DNA of 64,000 nucleotides from an uncultured Desulfurococcaceae archaeon. GTDB lineage: Archaea; Thermoproteota; Thermoprotei_A; Sulfolobales; NBVN01. The notes under the pieces were generated by a model. The model was not told where the DNA came from and ran no database searches. It saw nothing but the letters and a program-made list of their open reading frames with translations. Both the position numbers and the translations under genes were made by a program. Of this stretch, positions 2,065-57,975 are shown piece by piece (the stretch's first letter is position 1; each line of letters begins with the position of its first letter). The stretch lies in assembly GCA_964641155.1 (NCBI GenBank), contig CAZXJO010000001.1, positions 149,144-213,143 on the forward strand, in the 5' to 3' direction.

Positions 2065-2900
2065 ATACTACGTCGATAGAGCGTTGAGTATATGTCAAGT
2101 AGTGTCTCAACTTCCAGTTGGTAAACCCTCCTACTCCCAACTAAGCTGTCCAATATGGCGAGGTGCTCAGCGCTCACACCCCCATCAATACAGCCCCTCA
2201 AAACTTTCCTAGCCATCTTTCTCCTTTGATTGAACAAACACCTCACTAAGTCCTCATACCCCCTCCAACAATCACTCCAATTCCTATACCTATTTAAAAC
2301 GACTACCATAGAATCTACCTTGGGCTTTGGTACGAATGAGGTTGGAGGGTAGAGACCCCCTAATTCCACCTTCATGAACGTGTTAACCATAACTGTTAGC
2401 CTACTATAACCTCTATCACCTGGTGACGCTGCAAGCCGCTCAGCAACCTCCTTCTGAAGCGTTAACACTGCAGCTCTGCAATTAGACTTGATCACGGAGT
2501 CTATCAACGGACCGGTTATACCGTATGGAACGTTAGAAACTACGGTGTCTACACTTCTTAAACCAGACCGAAGTAGTAGAACCCCGTCCCCCACCACTAA
2601 ATCAACAGCGTTACCAACCTCTTCGTAGATGAAGTCCTTAGCGACAGTGGCTAATCTACCATCCAACTCTACAGTTGCCACGTACTTGACTATATCGCCT
2701 AGGCTTGCAGTAAGCAAGCCTAAGCCTGTACCAATCTCTATTACGTTGACTGGTTTCAACCTAGCGACATGCCCCAAAACCTCATCCAACAACTTATCGT
2801 CGACTATAAAATGCTGACTTAACTTCTTCCTAGCCTTAATACCATATGACTTTAGTAAGCGCTTCGTAACCTTTCCTAGGTCTTGATAACGCTTTCCCAT
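2061..2900 (-). CDS. rsmA: 16S rRNA (adenine-N6,N6)-dimethyltransferase KsgA/Dim1
   Basis: KKLSQHFIVD N-terminal motif, SAM-binding VIEIGTGLGLLT and NVPYGIT motif. I place the start at the internal ATG at 2900 (MGKRYQ..), because the 33-aa upstream extension of the ORF lies inside repeat copy A. Confidence 0.85.
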   Translation of the reverse strand: MGKRYQDLGKVTKRLLKSYGIKARKKLSQHFIVDDKLLDEVLGHVARLKPVNVIEIGTGLGLLTASLGDIVKYVATVELDGRLATVAKDFIYEEVGNAVDLVVGDGVLLLRSGLRSVDTVVSNVPYGITGPLIDSVIKSNCRAAVLTLQKEVAERLAASPGDRGYSRLTVMVNTFMKVELGGLYPPTSFVPKPKVDSMVVVLNRYRNWSDCWRGYEDLVRCLFNQRRKMARKVLRGCIDGGVSAEHLAILDSLVGSRRVYQLEVETLLDIYSTLYRRSI

Positions 2901-2912
2901 GACGGATAACCT

Positions 2913-3200
2913 TTCTGGTTTTGCGTTAACTTTCACCTCTCCCATCCCCCATTTCATGGGAGGACCTCCACCGTGAAGGGGTGAAGCCCCCACATCCATC
3001 GAGTACTTTCGTGGAAGGTTTTCACCGCTGTCACATCCCCACTCCTCCTAAGCCATATTTCGAACATCCCATATGCTCATACCTCTTCGGGCTTACCCCA
3101 CCAAGCATGCCGGCATAGGTGTGAGGTACCTTCAAAATCAATCATCGGCTATGGTAGTAAATAAACTTTACATTACACGGAAACAACTTACTAACTCCCG
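2913..3200 (-). repeat. Copy A of a 4-member intergenic structured element (putative ncRNA or structured leader)
   Basis: Shares conserved end blocks with 13970-14180, 50181-50370 and 57683-57850. On the minus strand it reads GTAAAGTTTATTTAC (BRE/TATA-like, about 3157-3171) .. GAAGGTACCTCAC .. CACGGTGGAGGTCCTCCCATGAAATGGGGG .. GTGAAAGTTAACGCAAAACCAGAA. Confidence 0.6.
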
Positions 3201-3309
3201 GGTCAGGGAATGAAGGTCTCAGCTCCTTAACCCGTTGACCGCCTCTTATCTATGGTTAGGGTGTCACCAAGTTTATTAGTTTAATAAGGTTTTATATCCT
3301 TGATAAAGG

Positions 3310-13928: not shown

Positions 13929-13969
13929 CCCCTAACACTTTTAACCTTACCCATAGTCACCAACAACCG

Positions 13970-14180
13970 TTCTGGTTTAGCTAGCTTTCATCCCTCCGTT
14001 TCATGGGAGGGCTTCCGCCGTGAATGGGTGGGGACGGCGCATTCATCCGGTACTTACCCACCCGAACCCATTCGGGCTTAGTCCCCACATACCGGACACA
14101 GATGTGAGGTACCCTCAAATCGATCATCAGTTACTGCGGTAAATAAGCTTTACACCATTACGGAAACGACTTCACTACCC
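13970..14180 (-). repeat. Copy B (most compact) of the 4-member intergenic structured element
   Basis: The minus strand reads GTAAAGCTTATTTACC (BRE/TATA-like) .. GAGGGTACCTCAC .. CCGGTA[..GCCCGAA-TGGG-TTCGGG..]TACCGG .. CCCTCC-CATGAAAC-GGAGGG-ATGAAAGC..AAACCAGAA. Nested hairpins can be seen directly. Confidence 0.65.
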
Positions 14181-14273
14181 TTACCTAACATCGAGGACTA
14201 ATTGACGTAGCCCGCTCAGAACTCCGTAAATCACGTTAAGGATATTTCCTTAATCTTACCGGCCGGTCAGCTC

Positions 14274-47194: not shown

Positions 47195-50152
47195 GTGTTT
47201 AGAAGTTGGGGGTTACCTATTGCTACTGAATATGTCAAATATCTAAATGATGTGTCCCGTAAATGGCAGGACGAGTGGAACAAGCGTAGGATATACGAGT
47301 CAGACCCCGAAAACAGGCCTAAGTTCTTCATAACTGCTGCCTTCATGTACCCTAACTCACCAGCGCACATAGGTCATGCCAGAGTTTACCTGATAGCAGA
47401 TGTCCTAGCTAGATACGCAAGGATGTTAGGATTCAACACCCTGTACCCGATGGGTTTTCACTACACTGGGACCCCGATACTTGCGATGTCAGAGTCCATA
47501 GCCAAGGGAGATGCAACACTTATAAAGGAATTGGAGGAACTCTATGGACTAACCCCTGAAGACATCGCATTGCTTAGAGATCCCCTGCAGCTGGCCAGGT
47601 ACTTCCACAGAAGGTCTAAGAAATCGATGATGGACTTCGGCCTAGGAATAGATTGGCGCAGAGAGTTCACGACTGTGGACCCCGAATTCCAATCGTTTAT
47701 TAGATGGCAGTTTGAGAAGCTGAGGGAGAAGAACTTCATTGAGAGGGGTTCCCACCCAGTTGGTTGGTGCCCCAATCACCAAATGCCTGTCGGCATGCAT
47801 GACACTAAGGATGATGTGGAGCCGGAGATAGGTGAGGTCACCGTAATAAATTTCATCGACTCCTCAGGGAAGGGCGTACTCTACCCGGTGGCTACGTTAA
47901 GACCGGAGACAGTTTTAGGAGTTACCAACCTTTGGGTTAGGGCTGACTCAGATTACTGCAGGTGCGAGGTATCATACAGCGATGGACGTAAGTACTCGTT
48001 GATCCTCTCATGTGATGCTGCTGAGAAAATATCATATCAGATGAGGGTTGAAATCGTTGAAAGGTTTAAGGGGTCCGAGCTAGTTGGTAGGGAAGCCGTG
48101 AACCCTCTAAGTGGGCTTAAAGTCCCTATCCTGAAGGCAGACTTCGTCGACCCTAAGTTCGGTACTGGTCTAGTCATGAGCGTTCCCGCGCACGCTCCGT
48201 ACGACTACGTCGCGTTGATGGACCACTCTGAGAAAGAAGGTGTGTCGATGCCTCCACCAATTCCTTTAATAACGCTTCAGGGATATTCCGAGGTACCTGC
48301 CAGGGACGTCGTAAACAAGCTAGGTATTAGGTCTCAAAAAGATGTTGAGTTACTTGAGAAAGCTACTAAGGAAATATACCTGGGCGAGTTCGCAAATGGT
48401 GTTATGAGGGATGATTTACAGAAGTTAGTCGCCGATGAGGTCATCCCTGGGAGTAGGGAGTTCGTAGGGAGAGAGGTCTGCGGTGCTCCAGTACCTAAGG
48501 CCAGGGAACGCATTAGGAAGTTCTTAGGGGACAACGGCTACGCTTTATCCATTTACGAAGTTATGAACAGACCCGTCTACTGCAGATGTGGGACTGAAAT
48601 AGTGGTTAAGGTCCTAGAAAATCAGTGGTTCATAAATTACGGGGACATCAACTGGAAGAAGTTAGCTTTAGAGGCCCTTAGCAATATGAAGTTAACGCCT
48701 GAGGAAACCAGGAAACAATACGAGGCGACTGTTGAGTGGTTGCAGAGGAAGGCGTGTGCTAGGAGTAGGGGTTTGGGAACAGAACTTCCTTGGGAGAAGG
48801 GCTGGATCATTGAAAGCCTGAGCGACTCAACAATCTACATGGCCTTCTACACGGTGATAAATAAGATCCGGGAGTACTCAATACCGTCCACCAGCCTGGT
48901 TAAGGAATTCTGGGACTACGTACTCCTAGGTGTTGGGGATGTTAAGGAGCTCAGCGATAAGCTTAAGATCCCTGAAGAACGTCTAAGAAGTATTCGGGAT
49001 GAATTCACCTACTGGTACCCTCTCGATGTTAGGTGCAGTGGTAAGGACTTGATACCGAACCACTTGACGTTCTTCATATTTAACCACGTTGCAATATTTC
49101 CGAAAGAGTTCTGGCCCAAGTCCATCGTCGTTAACGGCTGGGTTTTAAGGGAGGGTGAGAAGATGAGTAAGTCTAAGAGGAACATATTGACCTTAGAGGA
49201 AGCTATACGTAGGTACTCACCGGACGGTCTTAGGGCATCTTTAATGCTGTCAGCGGAGATCGACCAGGATTTGGATTTTAGGGAGGATTACGCGTACTCA
49301 GTTGTTGAACACATAAAGAACATAGAGTCCCTGATCGTTAAGGTGTACAGCAATGTCAATCGTTCCACGATTGGAGTCATGGATAGGTGGTTGATGAGCA
49401 GGCTGCAGAGACATATTAAGGAGGTTACAGAGGACTTGAACAACGTCAGGCTTAGGTCAGCTGCTGTGAGGATTTTCTACCTCATGTACCAGGACCTCAT
49501 AGACTACATCAGCATCTCGGAGAACTCATTATCGAACGTGGTTGTCGAGTACGTGAAGTCTTGGATAAAGATGATGGCGCCGTACGTGCCCCACATAGCA
49601 GAGGAATTGTGGCATCGCATAGGTAATAACACGCTGGTGGTCAATGAGCGCTGGCCTACATACATGGAAAACGAAGTTGATGTTGAGGCGGAACTATCAG
49701 TTGAGTTTGTGAAGACGTTGATAAACGATGTGAGGGAGATAGGCAGGCTTGTGAAGGAAGGTAAGGTGCTCTACTTATACGTAACCAGTAAGGAGAGGTA
49801 CGCCGACCTGATCAATGTGTTGAGGTACGTAGCTGAAGGCAGGTCGTTGAACGACATAATCAAGGACCTCAGTAAGGCTATAAGCCCTAAAGAATTAAGT
49901 GAGAGGGTTAGGAAGATTAAGAGGTTGTATGAGCTCGCAATCTCCTTAAGACCTGAGGTAAGGGAGCTTATAATGTCTTCAGGAGGTGTGGATGAGGGCT
50001 ACGTTGTTAATTCATTAGCTAACTATATTAAGGCATCACTAAACGTTAATGAATTACATACCTATTACACAGATGACGTTAATGCCCCAGACCTCGGCGG
50101 TAAGAAGCGTTTAGCACTGCCCTTCAAGCCCGGCATATACGTAAGTTCCTAA
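47195..50152 (+). CDS. leuS: leucyl-tRNA synthetase
   Basis: KWQDEWN N-terminus, HIGH variant PAHIGHARVY, KMSKS (EKMSKSKRN), and a CP1 editing domain. GTG start; the exact start is uncertain. Confidence 0.95.
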   Translation: MFRSWGLPIATEYVKYLNDVSRKWQDEWNKRRIYESDPENRPKFFITAAFMYPNSPAHIGHARVYLIADVLARYARMLGFNTLYPMGFHYTGTPILAMSESIAKGDATLIKELEELYGLTPEDIALLRDPLQLARYFHRRSKKSMMDFGLGIDWRREFTTVDPEFQSFIRWQFEKLREKNFIERGSHPVGWCPNHQMPVGMHDTKDDVEPEIGEVTVINFIDSSGKGVLYPVATLRPETVLGVTNLWVRADSDYCRCEVSYSDGRKYSLILSCDAAEKISYQMRVEIVERFKGSELVGREAVNPLSGLKVPILKADFVDPKFGTGLVMSVPAHAPYDYVALMDHSEKEGVSMPPPIPLITLQGYSEVPARDVVNKLGIRSQKDVELLEKATKEIYLGEFANGVMRDDLQKLVADEVIPGSREFVGREVCGAPVPKARERIRKFLGDNGYALSIYEVMNRPVYCRCGTEIVVKVLENQWFINYGDINWKKLALEALSNMKLTPEETRKQYEATVEWLQRKACARSRGLGTELPWEKGWIIESLSDSTIYMAFYTVINKIREYSIPSTSLVKEFWDYVLLGVGDVKELSDKLKIPEERLRSIRDEFTYWYPLDVRCSGKDLIPNHLTFFIFNHVAIFPKEFWPKSIVVNGWVLREGEKMSKSKRNILTLEEAIRRYSPDGLRASLMLSAEIDQDLDFREDYAYSVVEHIKNIESLIVKVYSNVNRSTIGVMDRWLMSRLQRHIKEVTEDLNNVRLRSAAVRIFYLMYQDLIDYISISENSLSNVVVEYVKSWIKMMAPYVPHIAEELWHRIGNNTLVVNERWPTYMENEVDVEAELSVEFVKTLINDVREIGRLVKEGKVLYLYVTSKERYADLINVLRYVAEGRSLNDIIKDLSKAISPKELSERVRKIKRLYELAISLRPEVRELIMSSGGVDEGYVVNSLANYIKASLNVNELHTYYTDDVNAPDLGGKKRLALPFKPGIYVSS

Positions 50153-50180
50153 CATACCGCAACAGCAATGCAACGTCCCG

Positions 50181-50370
50181 TTCTGGTTTGGCGTTAACTT
50201 TCATCCCTCCCCTCCTCGTCTCATGGGAAGGCCTCCCCGAGAACTCATGAAGCCCACACCCAGACCTAACCCCCCCACATACAGGACACAGCCATGAGGC
50301 ACATCCAAGAACAAACACCACGACAGCAAACAAACTCCACACAACACAGAAACAACCCCATAACCCCAAT
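50181..50370 (-). repeat. Copy C (decayed) of the 4-member intergenic element
   Basis: TTCTGGTTTGGCGTTAACTTTCATCCCTCC..TCTCATGGGAAGGCCTCC aligns with copies A and B. The distal half is recognisable but drifted (AAACAAACTCCACACAACACAGAAACAAC against AAATAAGCTTTACACCATTACGGAAACGAC), which destroys the TATA-like box. Confidence 0.5.
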
Positions 50371-50475
50371 GTAAGGTGTTGAAGAATGGCTCAAGTTAGC
50401 GCGTGATTTTATACTAAAAGCTTATAAACTCACCCCTAACATCATAACTGAGTAACCAGTAAGGAGATAGATAAG

Positions 50476-52462: not shown

Positions 52463-53755
52463 CTAGATTAGTTTGGACTTACCCGCATATCTTGCCTCTT
52501 CACCCAACCAGTACTCAATTCTTAGGAGTTCATTGTACTTCGCAGTTCTCTCACCCCTTGCCGGTGCTCCAGTCTTTATAAGGCCTGTCTCATAAGCCAC
52601 GCTTATATGCGCTATAGCGTTATCCTCCGTCTCACCGCTTCTGTGACTTATTATTGCTTTCCTACCGGAACTCATGAGCATTTTAATGCAGTCCTCGCTT
52701 TCCGCCAGCGTCCCGACCTGATTAATCTTAATTATACATCCATCAATAGAGTTAGACGCTAACGCCTTCTTAATCCTCTCAACATTAGTCACCGTTAAAT
52801 CATCACCTATCAGCAAGACACGCCCTCTAACCGCATTACGTAATTCTGAGAACTCCTCAAACCCTTCCTCATGGAACGGATCTTCAATGATCTTTATCGG
52901 GTATATGTCTACGAGCTCCCCGTAGAATTCGACCATGTCGGAGCTACTTAGCTCTTTGCCGTCCACCTTATAAACACCTTTATCTGCGTCATATATCTGT
53001 GAGGCAGCAACGTCTAACGCTAAGAACACGTCCGCTTCCTCAGAATATCCGGCCCGCCTAACAGAACTCACTAAAGCTTCCAAAGCCTCCGTTACCTTCC
53101 TCATAGGAGGTGCGTAACCTCCCTCATCACCCACATTAATCGCTGAAGGCCCGTACCTCTCCTTGAGGTACTTCCTGAGCTCCTTATAGATCTCAACGGC
53201 CACACGCAACGCCTCTGAGAACTTATCAGCCCCCACAGGCAATATCATGAATTCCTGGAAAGATAGTTCGTTACCGGCATGCGCTCCGCCGTTGATCAAA
53301 TTCATTAGAGGTGTGGGGAGTAAGTTAGCTTTAAACCCACCCAAGAACTGGAAGAGGGGCACACCTAAAGTATCTGCTGCCGCTTTTACGTTAGCTAATG
53401 ACGTGGCAGTTAACGAGTTAGCTCCCAACCTGGATTTGTTGGGGGTGCCGTCAAGCTCCACTAACTTCCTGTCCACATATCTATACATGCTTGAGTCCAG
53501 TCCCTTAATCGCGGGAGCTATGACTTTATTAACGTTCTCAACAGCCCTTAAAACGCCCTTACCCCCATACCTCTTACCGCCATCCCTCAACTCCAATGAC
53601 TCGTAACTCCCTCTGGAAGCGCCCGACGGCGCAGCCGCCCTCCCAACACCCCCTCCCTCAGTCACAACAACTACCTCGACGGTGGGGTCACCCCTAGAAT
53701 CAATTATCTGCAATGCGTACACATCGCTTATACTGAACGCGGACACCGCACACAC
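52463..53755 (-). CDS. eno: enolase
   Basis: ALQIIDSRGDPTVEV, SGASRGSYES, active-site regions DDLTVTN and SHRSGETED, and KYNELLRIE. I trimmed the start to GTG 53755 because a TATA box (ATTTATATA on the minus strand, about 53779-53787) lies inside the longer ORF. Confidence 0.92.
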   Translation of the reverse strand: MCAVSAFSISDVYALQIIDSRGDPTVEVVVVTEGGGVGRAAAPSGASRGSYESLELRDGGKRYGGKGVLRAVENVNKVIAPAIKGLDSSMYRYVDRKLVELDGTPNKSRLGANSLTATSLANVKAAADTLGVPLFQFLGGFKANLLPTPLMNLINGGAHAGNELSFQEFMILPVGADKFSEALRVAVEIYKELRKYLKERYGPSAINVGDEGGYAPPMRKVTEALEALVSSVRRAGYSEEADVFLALDVAASQIYDADKGVYKVDGKELSSSDMVEFYGELVDIYPIKIIEDPFHEEGFEEFSELRNAVRGRVLLIGDDLTVTNVERIKKALASNSIDGCIIKINQVGTLAESEDCIKMLMSSGRKAIISHRSGETEDNAIAHISVAYETGLIKTGAPARGERTAKYNELLRIEYWLGEEARYAGKSKLI

Positions 53756-54036
53756 CAAACCATAAGTCAATTGTACAATATATAAATATGAACGCATGTG
53801 GGGGACGTGGTTAAGCAATCAGCCACCGCATCACTGGCTGGAGTCACGCATCCCCCACAATTAAAGGTTATGAAGTAAAGAAAGTTTAAAACACATATCT
53901 TAAGCTACCCTCACACCATGATTACACAACACGTCAGGACGGAACGATGTGGGGGGTCGCGGCGCTTGACGCGTGATGGATGGAAATCAATTGGTAAGAA
54001 CGTGTAAAGTTAAATAACTTCGAACCCGTAATAAAC

Positions 54037-54097
54037 GCGGAATGATGTCAACGATGGGCGATCTGATTATTGATGAATCACTGCAGCACTGAACCGG
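54037..54097 (+). ncRNA. candidate C/D-box sRNA
   Basis: C ATGATGT (54042-48), 14-nt spacer, D' CTGA (54063-66), spacer TTA, C' TTGATGA (54070-76), 12-nt spacer, D CTGA (54089-92). Flanking CGG/CCG complement. A TATA-like AAGTTAAATAA at 54008-54018 lies about 20-25 nt upstream. Confidence 0.5.
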
Positions 54098-54420
54098 CTT
54101 ACCGGCTAGTCAGCCCTAAACCCTTGCCACTTTCAATTAAAATCAACATAGTTTAAACCATAGACTTCAGTGTTAAATGGTTTGAGCCGTTGCTATGTCC
54201 CCAGGGTTCATGAATATGTGTTATGAAGCTACTCTACTTCTGTGTGGAGTGTAAGGAGACAGTATGTGGTTTAAGATAGGGGCATAGTAGCCGTTAAAAC
54301 CCTTCAGCTGGACAGAAGCACCGTCTTCGATCCTCCGCGACGGAAGTCCCACGGAATAGGAAGGAAGGAGTGGAAGTCAACGATAGAATGGAACGAATGC
54401 GGTACGCTTAAGCTATCGGC

Positions 54421-55599
54421 TTACTGCCTCTTACGCTTCTTTTCCTTTTCCTTGACGTCCCCAGCGGTCTCTATGGGCACCACCTTAACCCCGACGCCTA
54501 ATAACCTCTTAACAACGCTGTCTAGGTACCTTATATATGATCCTCTCTGGCCCATGAACGGGCCTAGCACGTCATCAGATATTTTCACGACCAAGTACGC
54601 GCCGACGAAGTCTACGTCCTTGACCCTCTTCCAAACCCATGAAATCGGGTGGAGTGCTCTGATGAGCTGCGTGAAGTCTAAAGTCAGTTCCACTACCCTG
54701 ATCTTCTTATTTAAATCCTTCTCCATGGCGTTAATCCTCTCACCTCCCTTCCCTACCAACCTGCCCAGGTGGCCTTGCTTAACAATTACGAGTAGACTTG
54801 GCACATGCTCCGATGAGAGCTCGTACTTCTTAATGATGTCATCTAACTCAACTATGGTTACTATGTCAGCATCCGGTGCGTGGGCTCTGACAACCTCCAA
54901 TGACTTAGCCTCATTCTCACTTAGGCTACGGCTCCTCATGAGGTACTCTATAGCTAGCTTAATACCCCTCTTAGCCCCTGCCCTTACGATATCCTTAATA
55001 CCCAAGTCAACTACTTTGGCCTTAGACTCACTTGCCAGCACATCCCTAAGCAATGACATGGGGTCCTGGAGGCCCCTACCTCTCAGTGATTGGAATATGG
55101 GGTCAGCAGCAACTATCAACCTACTGTTCCTCCCAACCCTCAAAATAACTTCGATCAGCGACTCTATCTTAACCGATTGTGCGTCATCTATGAATACTAA
55201 GGAGTCGTCGAAGGTCCTGCCCTTGAGGTAATGGGTGTCCACGAAGACCAGCTTCCCCTCACTCATTAACTTAGCTATGGCGTCCCACGAGATGAACGCT
55301 CCCAACACATCAACCACGTACGACTTAATCAGCTCCACGTACTGGGGTCCGGCCCTAGCCAGCGTCAACTCCTCCCCAGTCGTAACGTCTATTAGGGGCT
55401 TCACCACCACTAATTTCTTAAACTTACCCTCCTCTAAGGAATCTATGCCGTAGGCAAGGCTAAACAACGACTTCCCACTTCCCGTAGGTCCGAAAATACC
55501 AACTATTTCATACTCACCGTTACTTAATGCGTTGACCAGGTCTTCCTGACCAGACGTCAACGGCTTAATAGTATGCAGTAACTTCAACCGCATCACCAT
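54421..55599 (-). CDS. PhoH-like P-loop ATPase with C-terminal KH domain(s)
   Basis: GIFGPTGSGKSLFS Walker A, Walker B-like LVFIDDAQS, the KH GxxG motif LVGKGGERINAMEKDL, and a basic tail KEKEKKRKRQ. Confidence 0.7.
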   Translation of the reverse strand: MVMRLKLLHTIKPLTSGQEDLVNALSNGEYEIVGIFGPTGSGKSLFSLAYGIDSLEEGKFKKLVVVKPLIDVTTGEELTLARAGPQYVELIKSYVVDVLGAFISWDAIAKLMSEGKLVFVDTHYLKGRTFDDSLVFIDDAQSVKIESLIEVILRVGRNSRLIVAADPIFQSLRGRGLQDPMSLLRDVLASESKAKVVDLGIKDIVRAGAKRGIKLAIEYLMRSRSLSENEAKSLEVVRAHAPDADIVTIVELDDIIKKYELSSEHVPSLLVIVKQGHLGRLVGKGGERINAMEKDLNKKIRVVELTLDFTQLIRALHPISWVWKRVKDVDFVGAYLVVKISDDVLGPFMGQRGSYIRYLDSVVKRLLGVGVKVVPIETAGDVKEKEKKRKRQ

Positions 55600-57639: not shown

Positions 57640-57682
57640 ACCCGTCATAAAGCCCTAACCCAAAGACCGCTCTGATCTAGCA

Positions 57683-57850
57683 TTGTTTTCACTTCTTCCA
57701 TCCCCATTTCATGGGAAGCCCACCATGAACTGGTGAAGGTGCACATCTCTACTAATACTCACCCGACACACCCATACGCGTTCGGGATTAGCTCCCCGGT
57801 TGGCGGAGCCTGCTTGGAGGGTTTATTAGGACATAATCAGACATTACCCT
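57683..57850 (-). repeat. Copy D (diverged) of the 4-member intergenic element
   Basis: TTGTTTTCACTTCTTCCATCCCCATTTCATGGGAAGCCCACCATGAACTGGTG aligns to the proximal block of copies A-C. CACCCGACA..CGTTCGGGATTAGCTCCCC aligns to the CCCGAA/TTCGGG hairpin of copy B. Confidence 0.45.
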
Positions 57851-57975
57851 GCAAACTTCCTACTTCGCAAGACAGGTCCTACCTCCTCACAATCTCAGTC
57901 TAACTCCGAAGCTCTAACACACATGTGATTAAACTGTCCCAAGGCTCATTAGAAAGTAGGGGGATGAGAATGGAA

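Follow-up and report, generated by a model that had tools for sequence, protein, structure and literature searches.

Four structured intergenic repeats in a Desulfurococcaceae archaeon: probable miniature IS607-family elements that retain an omega-RNA template

What are the structured elements that recur between the genes of an uncultured Desulfurococcaceae archaeon, and do their hairpins belong to a new RNA? The question arises from a stretch of 64,000 nucleotides (GenBank assembly GCA_964641155.1, contig CAZXJO010000001.1, positions 149,144 to 213,143 of the forward strand), hereafter the window, in which a first-pass annotation had noted four related intergenic loci and had proposed them as a candidate new non-coding RNA (ncRNA) or structured leader. 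We refer to these loci as copies A to D, and copy B, at 13967-14180, is the one examined most closely here. We conclude that the four copies are very probably miniature, non-autonomous derivatives of an insertion sequence (IS) of the IS607 family, comparable to MITEs (transposable elements of the miniature inverted-repeat type) or palindrome-associated transposable elements (PATEs), which have kept the promoter end of their parent together with the template of its omega RNA (also called reRNA), the guide RNA of the nuclease TnpB.

Homology of the four copies to an IS607-family element

The four loci are indeed homologous, and each of them is on the minus strand, in agreement with the earlier observation that they share sequence blocks in one orientation. 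When a profile of the four was run with nhmmer against the window it recovered copy A at 2888-3217 (E 3e-70), copy B at 13953-14199 (E 1e-61), copy D at 57646-57900 (E 1e-60) and copy C at 50154-50387 (E 2e-52), and besides these only a weak plus-strand match at 54292-54414 (E 6e-4). A degenerate pattern written for the 3' block matched exactly the four sites in the window and gave no match in 100 shuffles. The copies are 190-290 bp in size, are 45-65% identical to each other in pairwise comparison, occur at 4-5 per 64 kb, have broken reading frames, and carry left and right ends homologous to those of a parent IS. Their limits, as drawn from nhmmer and from the covariance model R1, the left-end hidden Markov model (HMM) and the tblastn searches described below, are as follows.

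2910-3199, minus strand: copy A, the most complete, 290 bp (nhmmer, R1, left-end HMM, tblastn); its left end begins at 3199, the TATA-like box lies at 3171-3157, the remnant of tnpB spans 3142 to about 2930 and the right end closes at 2910 with ..CCAGAAAGG.
13967-14180, minus strand: copy B, a complete IS607-type element of the non-autonomous kind, made up of left end, remnant of the tnpB 3' end and right end, 214 bp (nhmmer, R1, left-end HMM).
50178-50367, minus strand: copy C, 190 bp, its internal deletion larger and its TATA-like box destroyed (GGAGTTTGTTTGC) (nhmmer, R1).
57667 to about 57888 (left boundary approximate), minus strand: copy D, the most diverged, about 220 bp, with the TATA-like box lost and the right end ..TCAGAGCGG (nhmmer, R1, alignment).

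The first lead to the nature of these copies came from an exact-pattern scan of one genome per species for the conserved 3' block (TCCCATGA..TGAAAG..GC.A.ACCAGAAC), which returned 10 loci in one Archaeoglobales metagenome-assembled genome (MAG), 4 in an Archaeoglobi MAG, 1 in a Bathyarchaeota MAG and one chance match. In these MAGs the block stands directly 3' of sequence that translates to the C-terminal zinc ribbon of TnpB (VDAKGTSSLCPICGEKLSPNGYRRMKCSECGLEEDRDVIAVKNLLRRYQMDVGASSVHPEGPPMKRGGKG*; Pfam PF07282, E 5e-11), and several of the loci carry upstream of it N-terminal fragments of tnpA, a serine recombinase with a MerR-type helix-turn-helix (HTH). All of these first 15 loci hold tnpB fragments only, none of them full-length. 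With the TnpB C-terminal peptide as query, tblastn matched window copies A, B and C in several shifted frames, in copy A as ENLPRKYSMDVGASPLHGGGPPMKWG with 65% identity over 26 aa (E 2e-7) and in copy C as the trace ASWLCPVCG. Because of these matches, the G-rich structured segment is recognised as a frameshifted remnant of the tnpB 3' end, which stems from the last ~70 codons of the gene. The earlier statement that no reading frame is conserved therefore stands for the window copies, in which the frames are indeed broken, but not for their homologues, which keep the frame of the TnpB C-terminal Zn-ribbon; homologues with a conserved reading frame thus exist, and the window copies are its frameshifted remnants.

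Intact relatives, in Archaeoglobi and in metagenomes of hot springs, were reached by wider searches. A word-indexed search gave 88 close database proteins, all of them fragments of 38-123 aa, and an exhaustive profile search additionally reached full-length TnpBs of 380-430 aa. A scan of metagenomes yielded 80 loci, many with an open tnpB frame of about 385-415 aa, and about 20 of them with a complete tnpA-like open reading frame (ORF) of 196-217 aa immediately upstream of tnpB. The tnpA product of these relatives scores 219.8 bits with NCBIfam NF033518 (IS607 family transposase; cut-off 110) and contains the Resolvase (PF00239) and HTH_17/MerR (PF12728) domains, and the tnpB product scores 150.6 bits with NF040570 (RNA-guided endonuclease TnpB family; cut-off 100) and contains PF07282. 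The serine-recombinase TnpA with its N-terminal MerR-type HTH is found in the relatives only. None of the defining features that could be tested spoke against membership, and the family is of the IS607/TnpB/omega-RNA kind. Viral contigs gave no match to the right-end or left-end patterns, and a plasmid collection gave no DNA match, only distant TnpB proteins of 25-33% identity.

Several truncated loci of the Archaeoglobales and Archaeoglobi MAGs (L005, L006, L008, L009 and L012) show a tnpA fragment ending ..AAGAGCAAGGG that is joined either to a left-end-like GTTA.. or straight to the 3' sequence of tnpB. A GGGGTTA-like site inside tnpA, at the codons KSKGY, looks like a recurrent point of recombination or insertion, and the serine recombinase may use it as a pseudo-left-end.

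The boundaries of the element are sharp. Similarity among the relatives stops at ..CAGAACGG in 74 loci, most often 26 nt past the tnpB stop, and the flanks beyond are unrelated; all 74 right ends finish AGAACGG, and the flank after ..ACGG is different at every locus. On the other side, GGGG opens 29 of 31 left ends, and GCGTAAAGTTTATTAAC stands about 45 nt before the tnpA ATG. The transcription factor B recognition element (BRE)/TATA-like boxes of the window (GTAAAGTTTATTTAC in A, GTAAAGCTTATTTAC in B) align with this left-end box, and an HMM built from the left ends of external elements had as its two best window matches copy A (E 0.017) and copy B (14129-14180, E 0.095), both of them on the strand, and at the distance from the right-end matches, that would be expected. 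The window copies themselves end in ACGG (B and C), AAGG (A) or GCGG (D), and A, B and C start with GGG(G). A GGG at the insertion site together with a CGG before the guide are published hallmarks of the IS607 family (10.1101/2023.08.09.552727; 10.1101/2023.11.20.567912): the target-adjacent motif (TAM) of ISXfa1 is GGG but not CGG and its guide is flanked by CGG (10.1101/2023.08.09.552727), and CboIStron has TGGG target sites and a scaffold that ends in UCGG (10.1101/2023.11.20.567912). No terminal inverted repeats are present in the window copies, at most 9-11 of 30 terminal bases matching, which is chance level, and neither target-site duplications nor flanking direct repeats were found at them.

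The internal junctions show how the copies were shortened. The left ends of A and B stop at what is left of the start codon of tnpA (..CCGATG and ..CTGATG, respectively) and continue directly with the tnpB codons '(I)D.(E)GTS', and the same junction, from the tnpA ATG region to '(V/I)D..GTS', is found in three Archaeoglobi miniatures of another phylum (L001, L007 and L010; ..ACGTTGATGCTAAGGGAAC..). Copy A retains the tnpB 3' region in full, B and D appear to have in common an internal deletion of about 55 nt by which the DRD motif and the second half of the Zn finger are lost, and C has suffered a larger deletion. Since junctions and deletions are shared, we argue that the elements multiplied as miniatures. 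The alternative is that four full-length insertions decayed independently into dead pseudogene stumps which never spread in the short form, and the divergence of the copies, their frameshifts, their differing internal deletions and the many ad hoc deletion variants of the Archaeoglobi loci that keep only the right end are all in keeping with it. Independent decay is, however, not expected to repeat the same junction in A, B and the Archaeoglobi miniatures, nor the deletion that B and D appear to have in common, yet a GATG microhomology at the junction could make it recur; on balance we regard this account as unlikely.

Covarying hairpins of the relatives and their counterparts in the window

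The hairpins were examined on an alignment of 42 relatives of less than 90% identity, in which base pairs were counted on a fixed structure of two hairpins, H_a and H_b. Paired cells amounted to 98.4%, as against 94.5% in shuffles, double changes were seen at 7 pairs in 19 cells, and 0 of 500 shuffles reached any of these measures; controls in which the structure was slid along the alignment gave 48-62% paired. In H_a (UGGGG...CCCCG) the GGGG/CCCC pairing changes to GCCG/CGGC, GCCC/GGGU or GGAG/CUCU, and in H_b (CCCUCC...GGAGGG), with double changes at four of its six pairs, it changes to CCUCCC/GGGAGG, CUCCUC/GAGGAG, CCCUCA/UGAGGG or a short CCC/GGG form. The covariation of H_a and H_b bears out the earlier view that the conserved stems reflect selection on RNA. 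The compensatory changes of H_a moreover exchange Gly and Pro in the tail of TnpB, DVGASSVHPE becoming DVPASTVHGE (for example in L092, L096, L099, L051 and L062), and because they alter the protein the constraint at H_a is on the RNA. In the same region (alignment columns 215-238 of loci L020-L099) the Val codon in the loop is always GUU, and RNA structure and pseudoknot constraints appear to dominate this part of the tnpB coding sequence.

In 42 of 42 relatives the loop of H_a carries CCGUUC, complementary to the GAACGG of the terminus, and AGAACGG is invariant among them; a candidate CCGUUC:GAACGG pseudoknot, at the position of the pseudoknot of the ISDra2 omega RNA, is plausible. A further stem just before AGAACGG, H_c, occurs in 11 unrelated versions of 8-13 bp in 15 loci and shows strong covariation (last ~45 nt before AGAACGG; L053, L059, L063, L067, L069, L070, L072, L076, L086, L088, L090-L092 and L098); the most abundant subfamily, like every window copy, has lost the 5' strand of this stem. 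The arrangement is that of a TnpB omega RNA, with an RNA that overlaps tnpB at its 3' end, reaches as far as the right end of the element and is followed by a locus-specific flank. Judged by its place in the sequence, the 3' segment of the window copies sits at the known position of the TnpB guide RNA.

As an independent test of the window copies, the covariance model R1, for which only the 42 external sequences and no window sequence were used, with H_a plus H_b as structure, was searched with filters off. It matched copy B at 13967-14049 (E 1e-16), copy A at 2910-3002 (6e-16), copy C at 50178-50268 (2e-15) and copy D at 57667-57751 (1e-10), and, as a fifth match, 54309-54396 on the plus strand (E 1e-6). 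In copy B, 11 of 11 modelled pairs are standard. Its H_a is of the GCCG/CGGC type, and in D the hairpin can form as CACC/GGUG. H_b is formable in all four copies (CCCUCC/GGAGGG in B, CCUCCC/GGGAG(A)GG in A, CCUUCC/GGAGGG in C and CUUCC/GGAAG in D); the terminal hairpin with compensatory changes that had been claimed from the four copies is thus real, and the same hairpin covaries among the 42 relatives. The anatomy of copy B follows.

14125-14180, minus strand: left end, aligned with the left ends of full-length relatives (GGGG..GAAGCAGTTTC..GCGTAAAGTTTATTAAC..ATG of tnpA); GGG boundary 14180-14178, tnpA ATG remnant 14127-14125.
14153-14139, minus strand: BRE/TATA-like box GTAAAGCTTATTTAC.
13985-14124, minus strand: frameshifted tnpB 3' remnant (tblastn with the Archaeoglobi TnpB C-terminal peptide; alignments), with peptide traces EGTSHLCPVCGD, LSPNGF and KYRMNAPSPPIHGGSPPMKR; DRD motif and second Zn-finger half deleted.
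14016-14039, minus strand: hairpin H_a, CGCCGU (14039-14034) pairing with ACGGCG (14021-14016), 5 of 5 modelled pairs standard in the covariance-model alignment; its loop CCAUUC (14027-14022) is the counterpart of the CCGUUC pseudoknot strand of the family, with one A-C mismatch.
13992-14011, minus strand: hairpin H_b, CCCUCC-CAUGAAAC-GGAGGG (DNA loop CATGAAAC), 6 of 6 pairs in the covariance-model alignment.
13967-13975, minus strand: right-end terminus CCAGAACGG, whose GAACGG is complementary to the H_a loop and whose CGG is an IS607-type scaffold end.
13947-13966, minus strand: flank and would-be guide (TTGTTGGTGACTATGGGTAA), placed by the omega-RNA architecture.

The motifs that the first-pass annotation had read in copy B are all present, namely GTAAAGCTTATTTAC, GAGGGTACCTC, CCGGTA...TACCGG, GCCCGAA-TGGG-TTCGGG, CCCTCC-CATGAAAC-GGAGGG (14011-13992) and the tail ...AAACCAGAACGG, which ends at 13967. 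Of the nested helices that it drew from them, the terminal hairpin, H_b, covaries in the relatives, but CCGGTA/TACCGG and CCCGAA/TTCGGG are not conserved there, and the CCCGAA/TTCGGG helix is located at the junction of the internal deletion that B and D appear to share. The second covarying hairpin, H_a (CGCCGU...ACGGCG, 14039-14016), had not been described. That the element is none of the standard archaeal RNAs holds, an Rfam scan of the window at gathering thresholds finding only two tRNAs and no other family, IS605-orfB motifs included; in E-value scans of copy B and of the full-length relative L036 with Rfam, the best sub-threshold matches had E>1, which is chance level. A C/D-box RNA, with UGAUGA close to the 5' end paired with CAGA close to the 3' end, was considered and rejected, since the bases in question belong to the remnant of the tnpA ATG and to the terminus of the right end. 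Type T RNase P RNA and signal recognition particle (SRP) RNA were rejected likewise: both have Rfam models, the window scan gave no match to them, and four copies would be implausible.

Proposed course of events and the explanations weighed

The parent element would have had the order left end, tnpA (serine transposase with a MerR-type HTH), tnpB (RNA-guided nuclease), right end. To yield the miniature, nearly everything between the tnpA start codon and the tnpB '(V/I)D..GTS' codons would have been deleted, so that the remainder is a left end with an archaeal-type BRE/TATA promoter joined to the last ~200 nt of the element. These ~200 nt would be the omega-RNA template, comprising H_a, H_b and the terminus AGAACGG, in which the H_a loop CCGUUC could pair with the terminal GAACGG. 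The left-end promoter, which drives tnpA in intact elements, lies in the miniature about 25 nt upstream of the junction and would transcribe the right-end region directly; transcription is expected to cross the right end into the flank, and the product would be an omega RNA with a guide of ~16-20 nt that matches the DNA beside that very copy. TnpB from a full-length copy elsewhere may load this RNA, recognise a GGG-type TAM and cut the site vacated after excision, whereupon recombination would restore the element, and the serine recombinase TnpA, likewise supplied in trans, would move it by GG-core recombination. Given the 45-65% identity among the copies, the loss of the TATA-like box in C and D and the one or two mismatches of each in the putative pseudoknot, most of the copies in the window are probably relics, and the best preserved are A and B.

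Several results weigh against the derivation from an IS607-family parent with a functional omega RNA and have to be set beside it. Neither tnpA nor tnpB is present in the 64-kb window (by the ORF list, by Pfam on ten ORFs of ~300-450 aa and by tblastn), and our searches found no full-length relative closer than the Archaeoglobi family, at ~63% nucleotide identity; a frame-corrected window peptide used as query returned only the same Archaeoglobi fragments and no closer full-length partner. Both strands of the candidate pseudoknot are invariant in the relatives, so that the complementarity shows no covariation, and in the window each copy has one or two mismatches in it (CCCUUC with GAAAGG in A, CCAUUC in B, GAGUUC in C, and CAGUUC with GAGCGG in D). 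H_a is shifted in A and broken in C, as judged from the covariance-model alignment and by manual reading, about 55-90 nt upstream of H_a have been lost from B, C and D, and C and D are without a TATA-like box. Finally, the single-sequence fold of copy B is no more stable than that of shuffled sequences on either strand (z -0.84 and -0.92), so that it is no guide to strand or to structure.

Copy A at least might have been co-opted by the host, either as promoter or 5' leader of the adjacent ksgA/Dim1-like methyltransferase gene or through a guide that overlaps the start of the gene and regulates it. The right end of A lies 9 nt before the ATG at 2900, which leaves no room for a promoter of the gene's own; the left-end TATA-like box is intact in this copy, a GAAAGTTAAC internal to the right end lies about 30 nt upstream of the ATG, and the TnpB-tail frame is open into the gene (ORF 2061-2999). 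The evidence is positional only, and any insertion near a start codon would look alike; the gene downstream of B has a TTAAAA box of its own between the element and its ATG, and C and D have no such gene beside them. We hold co-option of copy A to be quite unlikely. As a side observation, the original promoter of the ksgA/Dim1-like gene must have been displaced by the copy, and since it was displaced, expression of the gene may depend on the left-end promoter of the element or on GAAAGTTAAC.

A broader form of host use would be that the miniatures are retained as stand-alone guide-RNA genes whose flank-derived guides act on host loci through TnpB, or through a nuclease-dead TnpB-like protein, encoded elsewhere, or that they serve as co-opted host promoters or leaders. 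The guide of copy A, overlapping the start of the ksgA/Dim1-like gene, could be an example; as a reading of the copies at large we consider this highly unlikely.

The new stand-alone structured ncRNA, or structured 5' leader shared by host genes, that had been proposed at the outset draws on the lack of any matching Rfam family, on the promoter-like box of A and B, which sit upstream of same-strand genes, and on hairpins that differ among the copies by compensatory changes, but it is almost certainly wrong, because the supposed RNA is the tnpB 3' end with the transposon right end and its box the left-end promoter, both ends and the interior, including the TnpB frame, are homologous to an IS607-family element, the compensatory changes belong to the omega-RNA hairpins of that element, multiple copies of the sequence occur in unrelated archaeal phyla, each locus having flanks of its own, and C and D have nothing to lead, since the genes adjoining them converge with their 3' ends facing the copies.

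Some further observations concern the copies and their surroundings in the window. The fifth match is a decayed block from a more distant relative, which is entered as follows.

54309-54396, plus strand: fifth decayed right-end/omega-RNA-like block (R1, nhmmer, tblastn).

Its tnpB remnant (DRGIVAVKTLQLDRSTV..) begins near 54215, with a tblastn match DRGIVAVKTL at 54275-54304. The whole relative (53950-54396, plus strand) occupies a 600 bp gap between ORF 52463-53818 and ORF 54421-55599 (PhoH-like), and a possible left-end TATA-like GTGTAAAGTTAAATAACTT stands at 54002-54020, a match which taken alone is not significant. The four copies are thus on the minus strand and only the decayed fifth on the plus strand, a bias that with so few copies may be due to chance. 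Copy C is poor in A on the element strand (18%, versus 25-26% in the other copies), and its 50 differences from the consensus include 14 A>G versus 2 G>A; an ORF of 81 aa with a TTG start that overlies it (50124-50369) is probably spurious.

Relation to known elements and significance

The relatives resemble IS607-family elements with TnpB and omega RNA, such as H. pylori IS607, ISXfa1 and the Clostridium IStrons, in their combination of a MerR-HTH serine transposase with TnpB, in the GGG left boundary and the ..CGG scaffold end, and in a guide RNA that overlaps the 3' end of tnpB; the window copies resemble them in being without terminal inverted repeats and target-site duplications. Unlike those systems, the window copies lack both genes, the lineage is one of archaeal thermophiles whose TnpB is only ~25-33% identical to annotated TnpBs and, with the NCBIfam IS607_TnpB exception model, reaches 31 bits, a long way short of the cut-off of 350, and the omega-RNA sequence matches no curated RNA family. 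In the omega RNA of ISDra2 TnpB, for which ternary complexes have been solved, stem-loops likewise lie in the tnpB 3' end and the right-end flank is the guide, and its pseudoknot pairs an apical loop with nucleotides flanking the guide (10.1101/2023.08.09.552727); here the corresponding pairing is suggested by invariant complementarity only. Between the two there is no detectable sequence similarity, and the type of TAM (GGG here) and the class of transposase differ.

For the miniature form a parallel is offered by PATEs and minimal IS200/IS605-type elements with an omega RNA as their sole product; minimal PATEs 'often encode omega RNAs' on which TnpB must act in trans (Meers et al., PMC10055086). 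They have the same gene-less form, with both ends and an omega-RNA template, and need TnpA and TnpB in trans (PMC10055086), a need that we would expect of the window copies as well. PATEs differ in having an HUH (Y1) transposase parent and palindromic ends, the parent of the window copies being a serine-recombinase (IS607) element; in the window copies, moreover, a direct fusion links the left-end promoter with the template of the RNA. With classical MITEs the copies share their shortness, their multiple occurrence, the absence of an intact ORF and the retention of the parental ends, but terminal inverted repeats and target-site duplications are not present; for this reason they are better called MITE-like than MITEs in the strict sense, which is what one would expect of an IS607 derivative.

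ISC1733 is a resolvase-plus-OrfB, IS607-like element, and to our knowledge no omega-RNA content has been described for SMN1, the element that it mobilises. SMN1 is summarised as an active non-autonomous element of Sulfolobus islandicus of ~320 bp, mobilised by ISC1733 (PMC3718332). By this description it resembles the window copies in being crenarchaeal, of similar size, without an ORF and dependent on the transposase of a two-gene IS (PMC3718332). Omega RNAs of archaeal IS200/IS605 elements have also been reported.

The copies therefore belong to an already known kind of mobile element rather than to a new class of RNA, and a false lead to a new ncRNA is removed; structured multi-copy intergenic elements in archaeal genomes should be tested first as omega-RNA-bearing transposon stumps. 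What is new lies at the level of the family: its cross-phylum occurrence, its miniature form of promoter plus guide template, and an uncurated omega-RNA family of a thermophilic archaeal clade of IS607-type TnpBs, found in Archaeoglobi, Bathyarchaeota and a Sulfolobales-like genome. With clear boundaries (GGGG ... AGAACGG) and a probable GGG TAM, this family could join Rfam or be mined for heat-stable compact editors. It also provides a clean example of RNA structure overriding protein, the Gly/Pro swaps in the TnpB tail keeping H_a intact. If the reading of the miniatures as guide-RNA genes were true, it would mark a step from a selfish omega RNA toward a dispersed guide-RNA system used by the host in an archaeon. 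As very probable derivatives of an IS607-family element, the miniatures amount to a promoter and a guide-RNA template, which fits the view that the omega RNA must be kept by such elements.

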